Source: a virus. Taken from it: a stretch of 64,000 nucleotides of DNA. The position numbers and the translations under genes are program-made. Below are positions 5,769-64,000 of the stretch, piece after piece. The notes under the pieces were generated by a model. The model saw only the letters and a program-made list of their open reading frames with translations. It was not told the DNA's origin and did no database searches. Positions within the stretch are counted from its first letter, which is position 1; the number at the start of each line of letters is the position of its first letter. The stretch lies in IMG/VR virus record IMGVR_UViG_3300025133_000032; one strand, 5' to 3'.

Positions 5769-7211
5769 TTATTCACAGATTTGCATCATATATTTTTTGC
5801 TGCCGCAGCCATAAATTTTGTTTACGCCCGCTACGCCAGCCACTGCTTGCTCAGTCATCCCGTCTTTTGCACGAAATTTAAATCTAGAATAACGTTTACT
5901 ACCATCATTATAGTCGTAGCTCAATCCTGTCCACCCTATATCTTCAAATCCAGCTTTTTTGTATCCTAAACCCTGGCCATATCGTAAATCTGCATAAGTG
6001 ACAATAGACTTATAACCTTTGCTTCGGCATATAAGACGACCTCGTTTTAAAAGCTTTTGCAATCCGCCTACTACACATGTATCAAGTAATGAAGCGAATC
6101 GAGCAACCTCAGCTGAGCCCTTGTATTTTGACGTGTGAAACGGCTTCCTGAAGGATATAGCAGATACTAACTCGTCTTTTTCATAGAGGCCTAAATTGAC
6201 TATCCCAGCCCTTGTATAACCAGCGACATGCGTTGAATCAAAGAATCGTCTAGCTTCTTGTGTAGAAATCTCTCTGACACTGCACTTTCTAGCGTATACT
6301 CTGCGCTTGGTGGTGCCCAACCTGTATGCTATCATTGACTTGACGATCGCCTGTTTATCTCTCCATTCATCCTCAAATATATGAATAAGATTAATATTTA
6401 AAGCTTCACACGCAACAGTCTTAGCGTAATGTCTATCTTTTCTTGTGTCTTTTTCGCTATATGAATGATAATAGAAGCTATCATATTCAATAGCAACTTT
6501 GCGAGATGGTATGTAGATATCAAGCTCTTTAGGCCCAATCGCTTCTCTGTCATTGTAAATTAAGTCTGTAATGCCTAATGTCTTTATGAAATCTGCTATC
6601 TCAAGTTGAGCGACAGACCCACCTGGATGACATGTCTTGCAGATAGGATTACGCTCAAAGTTAAGAAGTGTGTGTTCTATAACATCATCGCATGTTTGAC
6701 ACTTGAATAAAAGCTTCTGGCCTTGTCTGTACTTATAATCATTATAACTGGATAGGCATATGAACCTATCTGGCTTTGAGTTTACGCGATTTGAAAATTC
6801 TTCTAATGAAAGTCTATGTTTATCCGCATTAGACTTTTTGGCAGCATCAGTGTGTTTTTTTCCGTAGAAAGGATTCAGTTTACCAGGGAACGTCGATTTT
6901 TCAATTCTTGAATCAGTGTTGATTGTCTTGCCTTTATTCCATGCTTGAGCTTTCCCTCCCTTTGTGCCTCCTCGAGACTCAGCAATTGAACTATGTTTCT
7001 TGCAATAATCTTTAAAGTCATATGTGCAGTATCTAGTTGGTTCACCACACTCCAAGCATTCGGGTAGTTTACCAGCACGGAGGTATTTGACAGTGTATTC
7101 ATGAGCTTTTAACTTGTGCTTAGATAATACATGTTTAGAAAAGTGCCAGGGCCGAGTTTCAATGTGGCCGCAAATAGCGCATATCGTAGGGTATATTTTT
7201 TTGTTTGTCAT
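5769..7211 (-). CDS. Freestanding Hef-like homing endonuclease: Zn fingers, NUMOD3, Vsr/DUF559-like nuclease, C-terminal Mom/GNAT-like domain
   Basis: CAIC...HVLSKH; NPFYGKKHT (NUMOD3); ELDIYIPSRKVAIEYDSFYYHS and LIHIFEDEW; ARKCSVREI...GGLQKLL...TYADLRYG. Confidence 0.8.
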   Translation of the reverse strand: MTNKKIYPTICAICGHIETRPWHFSKHVLSKHKLKAHEYTVKYLRAGKLPECLECGEPTRYCTYDFKDYCKKHSSIAESRGGTKGGKAQAWNKGKTINTDSRIEKSTFPGKLNPFYGKKHTDAAKKSNADKHRLSLEEFSNRVNSKPDRFICLSSYNDYKYRQGQKLLFKCQTCDDVIEHTLLNFERNPICKTCHPGGSVAQLEIADFIKTLGITDLIYNDREAIGPKELDIYIPSRKVAIEYDSFYYHSYSEKDTRKDRHYAKTVACEALNINLIHIFEDEWRDKQAIVKSMIAYRLGTTKRRVYARKCSVREISTQEARRFFDSTHVAGYTRAGIVNLGLYEKDELVSAISFRKPFHTSKYKGSAEVARFASLLDTCVVGGLQKLLKRGRLICRSKGYKSIVTYADLRYGQGLGYKKAGFEDIGWTGLSYDYNDGSKRYSRFKFRAKDGMTEQAVAGVAGVNKIYGCGSKKYMMQICE

Positions 7212-7342: not shown

Positions 7343-9271
7343 TTAGATAATATTCATATCTCGGACGGTTACTGTACCGTAGAAATCGCTTCTGACCATA
7401 CGCTTACCGTATCTCGTCATCACGCCCTTCCTGGGTGTGAAATCTTCAGGAGCGAATATTGTAGGAGTCACAATCAATGGGACATAAGGTGCGTAAACGT
7501 ACCCAGTTTCAAGATAATTCTTGCCCTTAAACCCTACCAAAACCTTGTTCTGCGGGAAGTAAGGATCCTTATAGACTGTGAATCTATTACTGATTGAACC
7601 TACAGGTTCTGCGCCCATCGTAAATGGATTCGCGACTTGACCCTGTGCATCAAGACTTAGAAGTGGCTTCCAAGCAATCGATGCTTCAAGGATAGTTGCA
7701 ACATCAGGCCCGACAACAATGAAGTTAGCAGAGCCACGAAGCGTCTTACGATGAATAGTATTCGCTACATCAATGATTGTTTCGACAAGAGTCTCGTACC
7801 ATTCACGTACTGTACCAGTAAATGTTGGGCCGGGAGCAAGTGTGCTAGCCAATAATTGTTCAGCACCAGTATTCTTGTTAACAAATCTACCAGGTGCTCT
7901 TGACCAATAAAGGTTAGCACCATTAGCTTCACGAAGAAGGTCAGAAAGAATCTCACGATCAATCTCAAGAGCGATTTGCTCAGAAAGAATCTGAGTAAGC
8001 TCGACTTCTGCGTCCATGCTGTGATAAGCGTTAAGATCCTGAGCAAGCTCTGGAGACCAACGTGCTCTTAACTTACGAGTGACTGCCGTTACAGAGATTG
8101 ACTCAATCTTGATATCAATTTCTGGAATGATAGGTGAAGCATCAGATGTACTGAAGTCCGACTCGAAGGAAGGAATTGTCAACGTTGAACCATCAGAACC
8201 ATCGACATCAAGACTTGCGCCCTGTGCAAATGAAGCAGTAAGTCCAAGTACTGGAGTTGCAGGAGCCAAAGGACCTACAAGTGTACCAGAAACGACTGTT
8301 AACAACGCAGCGTTAGCGTCAGTTCTACCAACCAAAGCGTTTGCAGTAAATACGCCATTAGCATATGTACCTAACTGGTTAGTACGGCGGAGGTTAAGAA
8401 CATTCTGTCCCTGGCCTTGAAGTGCTTGTGGCATTACTGCCAAACCAGTTTGAGCCAACCCTGCTGAGAAGACTGCAAATGATTCAACCTGAGTTAAATC
8501 GATTGTGCTAGGTAGTGCGGAAAGGTCAAAAACCAAGAATGAAAAACGTCCAGTGTTATCAAAAGCACCATTCGCAGAATCTTCTTCGATTCTTTGTCCA
8601 AGCTCAGGATCGAACATCATAAGCTGTCCGTCTGTACCCGTTGCATGAAGGAAAGCACCTGCAGAAAGTGTAGTACCACCCTGATAAGCACCAGAAGCAA
8701 GAAGAACTAGCTCATTGCCTGATGTAGTATCATGGACCTTCGTGTAACTCTGCCCAACAAGGTCGTATTGTCCGCCAGTTGCTAGTGAACCGGAACGAAC
8801 ACCCTTACCAGTAGGGGCATTGTAAATTGATCTTCCTGCTGAATACGTTTGTGCATTCGCGGAACCTGCTGCGCCAGTTGCTCTAGCACTGTCGCCACCT
8901 ACGTTAGTACCGTAAGTATAATCAAGATAGAAAAGCAGGCCAGAAGGAAGGCTCATTGGTTGAATTGAGACAAGCTCATTAGCAATTAAGCCACCAAAAA
9001 CACGACGAACAATTGGGAATGCGATATTGCTAAAGCCCCTAATATCGCCTGATGATGCTAGTGCACCTGCGCCAGTTGAAAGTGAGTTAACCTCACGAAG
9101 GACTTCGGCTGCTTGGTTTTCAAGCATCCGCGCCATATTCTCTTTACCAGCTCCGCCGAGGCCACGAAGAAGACCAGTACGGTTCCACTTCTCACAAAGC
9201 TTGGTTGCTACTGCACCCATATCGCGTTGCTGAATTCCTTCGGTGAGTTGATCTAAACTAAATTTACCCAT
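7343..9271 (-). CDS. Major capsid protein, T4 gp23-like, with large insertion domain
   Basis: FPIVRRVF, LVSIQPMSLPSGLLFYLD, TRKLRARWSPELAQDLNAYH, EIDREI, GYVYAPYVPL, GVMTRYG. Confidence 0.97.
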   Translation of the reverse strand: MGKFSLDQLTEGIQQRDMGAVATKLCEKWNRTGLLRGLGGAGKENMARMLENQAAEVLREVNSLSTGAGALASSGDIRGFSNIAFPIVRRVFGGLIANELVSIQPMSLPSGLLFYLDYTYGTNVGGDSARATGAAGSANAQTYSAGRSIYNAPTGKGVRSGSLATGGQYDLVGQSYTKVHDTTSGNELVLLASGAYQGGTTLSAGAFLHATGTDGQLMMFDPELGQRIEEDSANGAFDNTGRFSFLVFDLSALPSTIDLTQVESFAVFSAGLAQTGLAVMPQALQGQGQNVLNLRRTNQLGTYANGVFTANALVGRTDANAALLTVVSGTLVGPLAPATPVLGLTASFAQGASLDVDGSDGSTLTIPSFESDFSTSDASPIIPEIDIKIESISVTAVTRKLRARWSPELAQDLNAYHSMDAEVELTQILSEQIALEIDREILSDLLREANGANLYWSRAPGRFVNKNTGAEQLLASTLAPGPTFTGTVREWYETLVETIIDVANTIHRKTLRGSANFIVVGPDVATILEASIAWKPLLSLDAQGQVANPFTMGAEPVGSISNRFTVYKDPYFPQNKVLVGFKGKNYLETGYVYAPYVPLIVTPTIFAPEDFTPRKGVMTRYGKRMVRSDFYGTVTVRDMNII

Positions 9272-51305: not shown

Positions 51306-52858
51306 TATGGATCTACTCTAAAAACGCCACCAACACGTTCAAAAATCTGCTTGACGCCGCCGTTATTTATTAACATATCTATCTGATAAACTCTTCCAAC
51401 ATCTAAATCATTCATAAATAAATCGAAGTACATTCCTGATGAGTCTGTCGATAGTTTTGTTGAATTTGTCGTTTCATCAAATTCAAAAATAGTTTCGTTG
51501 CTGTTCGTATCTCTGACTCTGTAATAAGCTTTATCAAAAATTACACTTTTTGCTTCTATAGGTACTCTAGTGTAGCGTAATGAAAACGTGCCCTCATCTT
51601 GTGCAAATACCCTAAACCTAACTTTCTCAGTTACTTTAAAAAATTCTCTCATATTTGTGACGTTAAGCTTTAAACGCTCAGGGACATTAGAGAATGATGA
51701 TTTGGGTATAGTCTTTACTACGAGCGTACCAGTATGATAACCTATCGTACCATCGAGTGAACCCCAAATTTCAGTGAATGTTGCTGACTGTGCATTTATT
51801 ATTTCATCCCTAAGTGCTGGTTCAAATGAAGAGATTGATAATGATGCAGAATAGACTCCTGGGATAAAATTCGTACCAACCTGATGTTGTGATGCCGTTG
51901 TTGTCAACGAAAAATACGAATTTGCAAGAGAACCAGAGTTCGTCCCCGACGTGACGGTCAACAACAGAGAATTTAGACCTGATATTTGTGTGGCTGCGGT
52001 GCCTGACACTATATTCGATGGTTGGCCCCGAGCAAAATTATTTAAAAACAGTGATCCGCTAACATCAAACTCAAAATTTTCGTGGTTATCATGCACCGAG
52101 TCGTCCCAGCCGATGATGACCCTGGGTGTCTGCCTTGTATTAGTACTATGTCTTGATATGAATCTTTTTACAAACCGGGTCTTTGAATCTGTTTCCTGAC
52201 TTCCTGAGAATGATATACGGAAACCATGGTCTGGAAGTTGGTTTGTCATCGTCGCCGAGATGATAGACGTAATATCCATGCTAAGATCTTCAGAGCCCTC
52301 AGCGAAATATTGTGTTGCAAACATGTTACCAAGAGACGTAGAGCCAGTAATTACGTCAACATTTTGCTGACCTGCATATCCCATTGCATTGGCACCAGAC
52401 TGTGCCCAAATTGACGTTGATCCGCCTGCTGTTGATGCTGTAATGAAGTTACATGAATCTATATCTTCATATGAAATAACATCACGCCCCAGTCCCTCAT
52501 CAAATGATTTTGATAGCGGATATAATATCGCAGTAAAGTTTGAAGGTATTGTTTGCCCGCCGATTACGTCAAACATCTTTAGTGTACATTTAAATGACTG
52601 ATCAGAGATATCAAGTATGCTAGATGTTAATGCATATAACGGGCTTAAATCAAATTTTAGTAAGAGTCTTGTTAGCTCAATTGGGTCTGTCGTTCCTGAG
52701 ATCAGTGGACCATCAGTAGTGTATGAAGATTCACCCGCAAGCTTAAATAAATCCAACGTTCCTGCTTGACCGACATTTGTGTCTGTCGCACGAAAAGCAT
52801 TACGTATTATTCTGTTTGTTATGTAAGTATCTTTACTAGCTGATAATAGTCTTTTCAT
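51305..52858 (-). CDS. Structural protein with DNRLRE-like N-terminal domain
   Basis: ASKDTYI...RLLLKFDLS...YPLSKSFDEG...DITSI...HGFRI...PRVIIGW. Confidence 0.6.
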   Translation of the reverse strand: MKRLLSASKDTYITNRIIRNAFRATDTNVGQAGTLDLFKLAGESSYTTDGPLISGTTDPIELTRLLLKFDLSPLYALTSSILDISDQSFKCTLKMFDVIGGQTIPSNFTAILYPLSKSFDEGLGRDVISYEDIDSCNFITASTAGGSTSIWAQSGANAMGYAGQQNVDVITGSTSLGNMFATQYFAEGSEDLSMDITSIISATMTNQLPDHGFRISFSGSQETDSKTRFVKRFISRHSTNTRQTPRVIIGWDDSVHDNHENFEFDVSGSLFLNNFARGQPSNIVSGTAATQISGLNSLLLTVTSGTNSGSLANSYFSLTTTASQHQVGTNFIPGVYSASLSISSFEPALRDEIINAQSATFTEIWGSLDGTIGYHTGTLVVKTIPKSSFSNVPERLKLNVTNMREFFKVTEKVRFRVFAQDEGTFSLRYTRVPIEAKSVIFDKAYYRVRDTNSNETIFEFDETTNSTKLSTDSSGMYFDLFMNDLDVGRVYQIDMLINNGGVKQIFERVGGVFRVDP

Positions 52859-62634: not shown

Positions 62635-63522
62635 TCACATGCTATTTTTGCAATGCTCCGTATTTTCAAAATCACAAAACCTGCATGAATCCCTATTTTT
62701 CAAAAAGAACCCTTTCTTAACAGCCTTCGCATGATTCTTAATAATATTTAATCCTTTAGCTTCAGCTTTTGGACCTACTGAAACTGGCACTAATTGCACT
62801 GCCGGTGATCCTATCTTTGCATCTCTCTTAAGCAAAGCAAAAGCACACCTAATATCTTTTAGAGGAATATTATGCTTTTTTGCCCAAAAGCTCTTATACA
62901 AAATCAATTGCAGCTGTACTTTAAAATCTTGCTTTTTATGACGTGTCCATCCCCAACCGCATGTTTTCCAGTCAATAATCCAGTAAATTACCTTACCATT
63001 CTTCTTCATGACCTTAAAGACTGCATCAATAAAACCTTTCAATGATATAGGTAATCCTTCGATGGGTTCGTATAACCTTTCTTCAGCACCAAAGCACTCC
63101 CAACCAGGAAATTCTTTATTTAGGAATTTTGGAATGCTGTTAAGGATATTGTCTGCTTTTTTGAGCCAATCATCTACATTACCATATCCCCCTGGAGACC
63201 AATCAGGAAAGGGCCCATTCATAAATGCTTCATGATTATCTTTCCAGTCTTTACGAATAAAGTCAAATGCTATCTGTTTATTCATTGTTCCTTTAGAGAT
63301 GAAATATTCATTTGCATTATGACATGCAGTCCCTAACCCAACATGGGGTGTAGTTGAAAATGTACCAAGCTTTTCGATATATAAGAGTTTGTGCCTCCAA
63401 CTACACTCAAGCCAGTTGGCGAGCTCAGAATACGAGACGTGGGGTTTACCAGTAGGCCAATCTACCTCTGTGGATTTAAAGTCTACTGGTAAACCTGTAC
63501 TGGGATCAATAATCGCTGACAT
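62635..63522 (-). CDS. PD-(D/E)xK nuclease, Cas4/RecB-like, with Fe-S cluster cysteines
   Basis: SYSEL...C, GTACH, KGFIDAV, IIDWKT, QLILY, CRFCDFENTEHC. Confidence 0.88.
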   Translation of the reverse strand: MSAIIDPSTGLPVDFKSTEVDWPTGKPHVSYSELANWLECSWRHKLLYIEKLGTFSTTPHVGLGTACHNANEYFISKGTMNKQIAFDFIRKDWKDNHEAFMNGPFPDWSPGGYGNVDDWLKKADNILNSIPKFLNKEFPGWECFGAEERLYEPIEGLPISLKGFIDAVFKVMKKNGKVIYWIIDWKTCGWGWTRHKKQDFKVQLQLILYKSFWAKKHNIPLKDIRCAFALLKRDAKIGSPAVQLVPVSVGPKAEAKGLNIIKNHAKAVKKGFFLKNRDSCRFCDFENTEHCKNSM

Positions 63523-63588
63523 ATAAATTATTATATGTCAGCGTGTGTTTTAAGTTTAAATTTAGTGATTTATGAATTCATGCTTACA

Positions 63589-63999
63589 CTATTTTAAATC
63601 TAAAACTTCTACTGTGCCTGTTTGCAGTGTTCCAAATTCATCATTTACGTTCAATTCGACTATTGCTCCATTCTGAGTAGAACACAATACATCTAAACTA
63701 CTATCATCGAATGAAAACTTCCCAGCAATAACCCCCGTAGATAGCTGGCCAGAACCAGCAGATGTATACTGACTGCAGTTCTTAAAAATCTTTAAAACAG
63801 CTGGCGAAGCATAGATCGTACCCTGCGCAAAATTTTTAGTGAGTTGCCTCTGTACATCGTAAATAATTTCTTGTAATGTTGATAACCAGTGTTCTGGTTT
63901 ACCAGTCCAGCTTGGTCCTCGAGCTGGACTGACTGGTGCTGTTCGTATACCTGTCAGTTTATTAACAAACTGCCCAGGGGTACTTGACCAATAATATTT
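63589..63999 (-). CDS. Divergent major-capsid A-domain paralogue, 5' end outside the window
   Basis: Manual translation KYYWSSTPGQFVNKLTG...GPSWTGKPEHWLSTLQEIIYDV...GTVEVLDLK* aligns with MCP YWSRAPGRFVNKNTG...GPTFTGTVREWYETLVETIIDV...GTVTVRDM. Confidence 0.8.
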   Translation of the reverse strand, partial: KYYWSSTPGQFVNKLTGIRTAPVSPARGPSWTGKPEHWLSTLQEIIYDVQRQLTKNFAQGTIYASPAVLKIFKNCSQYTSAGSGQLSTGVIAGKFSFDDSSLDVLCSTQNGAIVELNVNDEFGTLQTGTVEVLDLK

Positions 64000-64000
64000 T

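Follow-up and report, generated by a model that had tools for sequence, protein, structure and literature searches.

Among the proteins of tailed phages, the capsid protein with its HK97 fold is the most conserved. In proteins of this fold, a strand-loop-helix element of the A-domain lies around the capsomer axis. Uses of the fold other than building an element's own standard shell are known from satellites: Ccm, the capsid-size redirection protein of cos-type phage-inducible chromosomal islands, has the full HK97 fold and co-assembles with the helper capsid. In phage T4, the gp23-type major capsid protein (MCP) is accompanied by gp24, an MCP paralogue encoded in the same genome (PF07068; PDB 7VRT, 5VF3, 1YUE). 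Several bacterial immune sensors are reported to read the capsid protein, and binding of such sensors to the A-domain of the MCP has been described in the literature. Structural proteins other than the capsid are also sensed; the phage protein DSAD1 counters DSR2, a sensor of the tail tube (PMC11087589).

Here we describe a locus in a 64,000-nucleotide stretch of DNA of an uncultured virus (IMG/VR record IMGVR_UViG_3300025133_000032; the window in the following). The locus very probably encodes a complete, 138-aa, stand-alone copy of the A-domain of the phage's own gp23-type MCP, referred to below as the mini-protein. Literature searches for a stand-alone A-domain protein or a capsid decoy yielded no published account of either.

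The mini A-domain gene and its surroundings in the window

The open reading frame at 63589-63999 on the minus strand extends without interruption to the window edge; its 136 residues end in ...GTVEVLDLK, followed by TAG. In the initial annotation, it was taken for a second, truncated capsid gene about 55 kb from the MCP gene, with its N-terminus to be sought beyond position 64000. A second copy of capsid sequence is indeed present, at a distance of 54.3 kb; the gene is not truncated in any meaningful sense, since the edge of the window removes two codons (Met-Val) and nothing else. Codon 2 (GTA, Val) has its last base at window position 64000, and the ATG is located just outside, at 64004-64006. 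A HMMER search of 1.84 billion representatives retrieved a 138-aa protein (P0001) that is 100% identical to the window fragment, which corresponds to its residues 3-138. Two independent metagenome contigs, L002 and L003, encode the identical 138-aa protein, in both cases as an internal gene. Over the overlap with the window, L002 is 99.9% identical (1 mismatch in 876) and L003 is 100% identical, and both therefore belong to the same phage population; as the gene is internal on these contigs, the window copy lacks Met-Val only, and the gene is complete.

On L002, where the mini gene occupies positions 668-1084, an AAGGAG sequence is found 8 nt upstream of the start, and a short ORF upstream terminates in a TAA one base ahead of the ATG. 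A gp24-type vertex gene with its N-terminal two thirds beyond the window edge had been considered as a candidate and is ruled out by a 138-aa protein that starts two codons past that edge. A word-based protein search returned no longer relatives of the mini-protein, because the protein itself is only 138 aa long. Five contigs encode the 138-aa protein, one of which spans 0.2-1 Mb, so that the genome of this phage exceeds 200 kb. Further upstream on L002, positions 161-549 (approximately 64124-64512 in window numbering) hold a methyltransferase-like ORF of 88 aa, next an out-of-frame ORF and finally one of 38 aa with a strong GAGGAG site; the methyltransferase gene at this place may be split or frameshifted.

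Table 1. Features of the 64,000-nt window that bear on the mini A-domain gene
Feature	Position	Strand	Remarks
Mini capsid A-domain gene	63589..64000	-	codons 3-138 inside the window; TAG at 63589-63591
Perfect hairpin with 13-bp stem, CGCTGACATATAA-TAAT-TTATATGTCAGCG (coding strand)	63514..63543		in the 66-nt spacer after the mini gene
PD-(D/E)XK nuclease gene directly downstream of the mini gene	62635..63522	-	PF12705, E 2.9e-14; synteny anchor with related phages
Two GT4 glycosyltransferase genes, 421 and 391 aa	58895..61332	-	phrog_2170; synteny anchors, part of the sugar-gene island of the mini gene
gp23-type major capsid protein (MCP), 642 aa	7343..9271	-	PF07068 (Gp23), E 2.9e-75; phrog_138, major head protein
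MCP part copied in the mini-protein	residues 455-642, ~7343-7910	-	BLASTP, family alignment

The mini gene is co-oriented with, and upstream of, a 64-kb run of minus-strand genes (Table 1). It is followed by the PD-(D/E)XK nuclease gene, the two GT4 genes, the baseplate, tail and neck genes, a scaffold-like protein, the MCP and a homing endonuclease. Neither a gp24-type vertex gene nor a second full-length MCP paralogue was found in the 64-kb window, which includes head, neck, tail and baseplate genes. The 3′ arm of the hairpin behind the mini gene includes the ATG of the nuclease gene; the hairpin, which is present at 1130-1159 on L002, is terminator-like on both strands and could serve to end transcription or to gate the translation of the nuclease. 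No sigma-70-like promoter was detected in the 667 nt upstream of the mini gene or in the 1.5 kb around it, and no consistent upstream promoter motif was seen across the window, all genes of which are on one strand.

Several features of the full-length MCP gene and its vicinity were recorded alongside. The homing endonuclease directly downstream of the MCP gene (5769-7211, minus strand, 480 aa) matches phrog_3339/559 and carries a weak NUMOD3 and a C-terminal Mom-like region. The contig encoding family member P0034 likewise has an endonuclease gene after the MCP gene, and its mini A-domain gene is situated 2.3 kb behind the MCP gene. The MCP of the window matches the Pfam Gp23 model in two stretches, with an insertion of ~250 residues between them (residues ~120-370); MCPs of this inserted type, 600-680 aa in length, are abundant in IMG/VR, where one scan yielded 543 relative stretches and nearly all of the 80 that were kept are such MCPs. 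Residues 320-370 weakly resemble part of a 517-aa protein, at 51821-51973 (E 0.008).

Homology to the capsid protein and fold

Residues 3-73 of the 136-residue window fragment align with MCP residues 455-529 (BLASTP E 1e-11, 39% identity over 75 aa), and in a tblastn search of the whole window with the MCP, the mini locus is the sole other significant match (E 2.4e-8). The alignment with the MCP region encoded at ~7345-7910, which had been proposed by eye and whose significance had been left to be established, is thus borne out. Two of the short blocks in that alignment, GVIAGKF with GSISNRF and GTVEVLDL with GTVTVRDM, are on their own below BLAST significance; their placement nevertheless agrees with a 30-sequence alignment, with the profile and with the fold. 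The family profile (see below) scores the window ORF at E 7.7e-34, and within the window a C-terminal strand of the form V-x-V-[LR]-D-[LM] ends only the MCP and the mini-protein, the latter without the final NII. Pfam assigns no family to P0001 at E<=0.01, the Gp23 (PF07068) threshold not being reached, and Gp23 is matched by 5 of the 27 aligned family members (best E 4.6e-11). A search of PDB chains with a sequence profile gave nothing significant: gp24 came up at E 0.9, and a large clostridial toxin, listed at E 0.24, is a chance match. The window copy is a divergent member of its family: its N-terminal segment is 40% identical to MCPs, and near-invariant MCP positions have changed, from YWSR to YWSS and from GTVREWYETL to GKPEHWLSTL.

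The boundaries of the copied region are the same in all 27 aligned mini-proteins. Each starts at [FY]WSRxPGKFVNKxTG, a motif that comes immediately after a long helix (...DAEVELTQILSEQIALEIDREILSDLL) in the MCP, and ends at the C-terminal strand of the MCP, V-x-V-L-D-M-N-I-I. The P-domain hairpin of ~40 residues, ETGYVYAPYVPLIVTPTIFAPEDFTPRKGVMTRYGKRMVRSDF, is deleted in every one of the 27; the omission of the conserved segment ETGYVYAPYVPL...GVMTRYGKRMVRSDF, which had been noticed in the window copy, is accordingly real and common to all of them.

An AlphaFold2 model of the mini-protein, computed from the family alignment (pLDDT 84.5, pTM 0.79), comprises a sheet flanked by two helices, as in an A-domain. 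Foldseek searches with this model gave weak matches (best E 0.05), the top rows being capsid proteins, and the top nine rows of a VIA-align search are all phage capsid proteins (Z 7.9-10.0). These include the MCP of Staphylococcus phage S6 (Z 10.0, rmsd 2.7, 104 residues aligned to target residues 357-528), T4 gp24 (Z 9.7, rmsd 2.9, 108 residues aligned to 223-422) and T4 gp23 (Z 9.4, rmsd 3.0, 112 residues aligned to 315-521). The A-domain part of a related long form aligns to residues 234-383 of HK97 gp5, which are the A-domain of that protein, interrupted by the P-domain hairpin.

According to alignment and model, the mini-protein has neither N-arm nor E-loop, and it likewise lacks the spine helix, the P-domain hairpin and the ~250-aa insertion. 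The HK97 fold of the full-length protein is thus incomplete, as it consists of the part after the spine helix minus the hairpin, and the protein cannot be a lattice subunit. Its description as an A-domain paralogue, and not a gp24-type vertex protein, agrees with its length of 138 aa, with its correspondence to MCP residues 455-642 minus the hairpin and with a superposition confined to the A-domain. A co-folding prediction of MCP and mini-protein, run with alignments and no control runs, scored 0.14, below the cut-off, and is given no weight in either direction.

The family, its genomic settings and its evolution

Stand-alone A-domain proteins were grouped into a family by a start within ~35 residues of the motif [FY]WSxxPGxFVNKxTG, the lack of the P-domain hairpin and an end at the V-x-V-L-D strand; the window ORF has all of these characteristics. 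The family comprises at least 60 sequence clusters, with proteins of 116-176 aa as well as forms of 232-241 aa with an extra N-terminal domain. A profile search limited to proteins of 63-308 aa retrieved 535 proteins at E<1e-5. Sorting of 141 sequences by motif position and hairpin presence yielded ~40 mini-proteins (116-176 aa, and two of ~245 aa), ~20 N-extended forms of 232-241 aa and 71 MCPs or MCP fragments; a profile search of MAG contigs found full-length MCPs only. The names given in the source databases to the family proteins found do not go past 'hypothetical protein'. The window DNA, the mini-protein and a more typical member, P0081, had no match in the GenBank phage collection, so that this clade has no annotated relative in that collection. 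An exact 51-mer search of IMG/VR gave no hit.

The N-terminal domain of the long forms, ~100 residues in length, is predicted with high confidence (pLDDT 90.7) as a long helix followed by strands; it had no profile match to the MCP and was left unaligned in the superposition on capsid chains. Forms of 232-241 aa are encoded at the site orthologous to that of the window gene in two loci (L007:9710-10408 and L086:10001-10705). An ORF of 288 aa with an A-domain-like region at residues 105-237 was found on a MAG contig labelled Candidatus Woesebacteria (L112:7686-8552) and may be another capsid derivative of intermediate length, or a truncated MCP.

Five loci (the window, L086 on a 345-kb contig, L087/088, L089/090 and L007) have the gene at the same site of a sugar-gene island. 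The island reads glycosyltransferases, epimerases, DegT, acyl- and methyltransferases, mini gene, UDP-sugar dehydrogenase, a variable block, PD-(D/E)XK nuclease and two GT4 genes. The window lacks the block from the dehydrogenase to the dual-specificity phosphatase (DSPc) and is collinear with the other island loci elsewhere. The PD-(D/E)XK gene downstream of the mini gene is also present in L086-L089 and in L007, and short and N-extended forms of the mini-protein alternate at this orthologous site. In L086, L087 and L089, the block between the mini gene and the nuclease gene encodes NAMPT, a NadM-Nudix-type protein, PTH2, DSPc, an HD_4 protein (RelA/SpoT-type hydrolase), Band_7 and a tRNA-binding protein. 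The NAMPT and NadM-Nudix-type genes, which like the remainder of the block are missing from the window, stand for NAD salvage, and the variable block looks like a counter-defence or host-takeover set.

Elsewhere, the gene is found in different company: between RecA and dUTPase genes on one side and 5′-3′ exonuclease, DnaB and RNR genes on the other; between Band_7 and ThyX; or among small ORFs adjoining a DNA methyltransferase gene. Two members are located 2-3 kb downstream of the MCP gene (L050 and the P0034 contig, in the latter behind the homing endonuclease). A 204-kb IMG/VR contig carries two very divergent mini genes in tandem (L097:1444-2515; 166 and 192 aa) next to two HNH-type genes, with the MCP gene 11 kb away on the opposite strand.

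Eleven long related contigs or MAGs, including a 273-kb IMG/VR record (rated 82% complete) and a 306-kb MAG contig, encode the MCP and no mini-protein. The island recurs in G013 and G005, two related phages, where the UDP-sugar dehydrogenase gene (products 67% and 58% identical, respectively) directly follows a methyltransferase or epimerase gene and precedes the PD-(D/E)XK and GT4 genes; no mini gene is present anywhere on either contig. The mini gene is thus optional, with a sporadic distribution among related uncultured T4-like phages, some of which are represented by contigs of >200 kb.

A tree was built from 63 A-domain segments, 13 of them from MCPs; the latter form one clade (SH-aLRT 91), and no mini-protein groups with the MCP of its own genome (window, L050, L006/L097). 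Mini-proteins therefore constitute an old paralogous lineage and are not recent copies. The end branches measure ~0.8-2 or more changes per column for mini-proteins versus 0.1-0.2 for MCPs, so that mini-proteins evolve several-fold faster. Among orthologues of the window genes, identities fall from 47-57% (first GT4) and 43-52% (second GT4) to 33-43% (PD-(D/E)XK) and 29-34% (mini-protein); the MCPs of the clade are 45-72% identical. Change is distributed unevenly along the protein. In residues 1-57, which form the first strand, the long loop and the first helix, mini-proteins are 52% identical to each other and 56% to MCPs, as compared with 77% among MCPs; in residues 58-138, the corresponding values are 26%, 31% and 78%. 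One MCP-like strand-loop-helix element has been preserved, be it as a surface or as part of the core, and the remainder of the mini-protein keeps the fold only.

Possible roles and relation to described systems

We consider it the best explanation, at a probability of about 0.35, that the mini-protein imitates, in soluble form, the conserved face with which the MCP builds capsomers, and that it serves as an anti-defence decoy and not as part of the shell. A decoy is ranked first because the gene is optional, fast-evolving and outside the head module. Completeness, a single retained MCP-like element, fast evolution, sporadic presence and a location mostly away from head genes are the usual marks of an accessory gene involved in conflict and not of a core assembly factor. 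The mini-protein would be produced from a non-structural gene block, presumably with early or middle expression, and the free A-domain would then occupy host sensors that recognise the A-domain of the MCP. As the P-domain and E-loop contacts are lacking, the sensor would be bound and not triggered. More specifically, the free A-domain may fill the binding pocket of MCP sensors (Avs7/8/10 or Dsr1-type) without activating them, a tentative proposal that would amount to pattern-recognition immunity being pre-empted.

Four points count against a decoy. An isolated A-domain might activate such sensors instead of blocking them; the drift of the window copy at near-invariant MCP positions is odd for a faithful mimic; the members encoded 2-3 kb downstream of the MCP gene fit a role in head assembly; and small accessory genes are often fast-evolving regardless of their function.

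Were the mini-protein to act as a decoy, it would be the first such decoy to originate from the very protein that triggers the defence, and would embody a new principle of counter-defence. The family would in that case be a marker of phages facing capsid-sensing immunity, and the 138-aa protein a simple reagent with which to probe capsid sensors. A conserved, optional family that retains the A-domain alone, and of it mainly one MCP-like element, shows that phages reuse a piece of the shell protein for a job off the shell, and its recognition in any case allows annotators to avoid the labels 'capsid protein fragment' and 'vertex protein'.

The alternative that survives best, doubtful as it is in our estimation, is a modulator of capsid assembly, which would attach, as a free A-domain, to the corresponding face of MCP monomers or capsomers. 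Such a protein could be a chaperone-like cap that delays or steers the formation of capsomers, or a plug or decoration at the capsomer centres of a very large head, and if it controls assembly, it would bear on how very large heads are built. Retention of the MCP-like strand-loop-helix element is consistent with this role, as is the position of the L050 and P0034-contig members close downstream of the MCP gene. However, the gene is optional and absent from the 11 long related records that carry an MCP; most loci consist of sugar, nucleotide or replication genes and not of the head module; the mini-protein evolves 5-10 times faster than its supposed MCP partner; and its sequence, which starts MVKYYWSS, has no propeptide or leader of the capsid-targeting type.

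The shared position of five loci inside an island of glycosyltransferase, epimerase, DegT, acyl- and methyltransferase genes raises the question of a glycan-linked function: glycosyltransferases acting on the capsid A-domain might use the mini-protein as an acceptor-like adaptor or carrier, or the mini-protein might itself be glycosylated. In three of the five, the gene immediately ahead of the mini gene encodes ~320-330 aa; its L007 version overlaps the mini gene by 4 nt and is weakly glycosyltransferase-like (E 5.6e-4, below the cut-off of Pfam). This role is nonetheless improbable, given that G013 and G005 have the island without the mini gene, that other members are found in replication or nucleotide modules with no adjoining sugar genes and that the gene directly upstream of the mini gene differs among loci. 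Sugar clusters of this kind have been interpreted as serving the modification of cell-surface polysaccharides (Iyer et al. 2021, PMC7824862).

Ranked next, and improbable as well, is a weapon in conflicts between phages, by which a dominant-negative A-domain would poison the capsomers of co-infecting relatives while the phage's own MCP is tolerant. The sporadic distribution and fast evolution, the retained conserved MCP element and the divergence of the window copy from its own MCP would all suit such a weapon. On the other hand, self-immunity is without evidence, and selectivity would be hard to achieve among MCPs that are 45-72% identical within the clade.

A decaying, functionless remnant of a partial MCP duplication, arising for example through homing-endonuclease repair, is very unlikely. 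Homing endonuclease genes do adjoin the MCP gene in the window (5769-7211) and on the P0034 contig, and genes of this kind are also found next to the two divergent mini genes of L097. Decay is, however, difficult to reconcile with 27 of 27 aligned members sharing the N-terminal boundary, the internal deletion and the C-terminal end at ~30% mutual identity; their ORFs are intact, six positions are invariant and a ribosome-binding site is present. Nor does decay agree with a confidently predicted fold, or with orthologues that keep a syntenic site across phages whose other proteins are ~50% identical. Finally, a truncated gp24-type vertex gene, as the ORF open at the window edge had suggested, can be dismissed for practical purposes, since on L002 the preceding ORF stops one base before the mini ATG and the identical 138-aa protein is encoded on two contigs.

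How does the mini-protein, with a decoy as the preferred reading, compare with the systems described to date? Like Ccm, it is a homologue of the HK97-fold MCP employed apart from building the element's own standard shell. Ccm has the full fold and is encoded by a satellite, whereas the mini-protein consists of one domain and its gene belongs to the phage.

The closest structural relatives are gp23 and gp24 of T4. The mini-protein is homologous to the gp23-type MCP of the window, superposes on both T4 proteins and, like gp24, shares a genome with the MCP of which it is a paralogue; by homology and predicted fold, it is a derivative of the gp23/gp24 family. In contrast with gp23 and gp24, which are 427-521 aa long, it measures 138 aa and lacks the parts that make lattice contacts. 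A vertex gene of the gp24 type is usually next to gene 23, whereas the mini gene lies 54 kb from the MCP gene and is optional among relatives. Because it does not have a complete HK97 fold, the defining feature of gp23 and gp24, we do not file the mini-protein as a capsid or vertex protein.

In terms of mechanism, DSAD1 offers the nearest parallel. Both are small phage proteins, and the mini-protein is proposed to do what DSAD1 does, namely to compete for an immune sensor of the host with a structural protein of the virion. DSAD1 is not described as a copy of its trigger (PMC11087589), whereas the mini-protein, through its proposed binding to the sensor, would counter immunity as a domain copy of the trigger itself.
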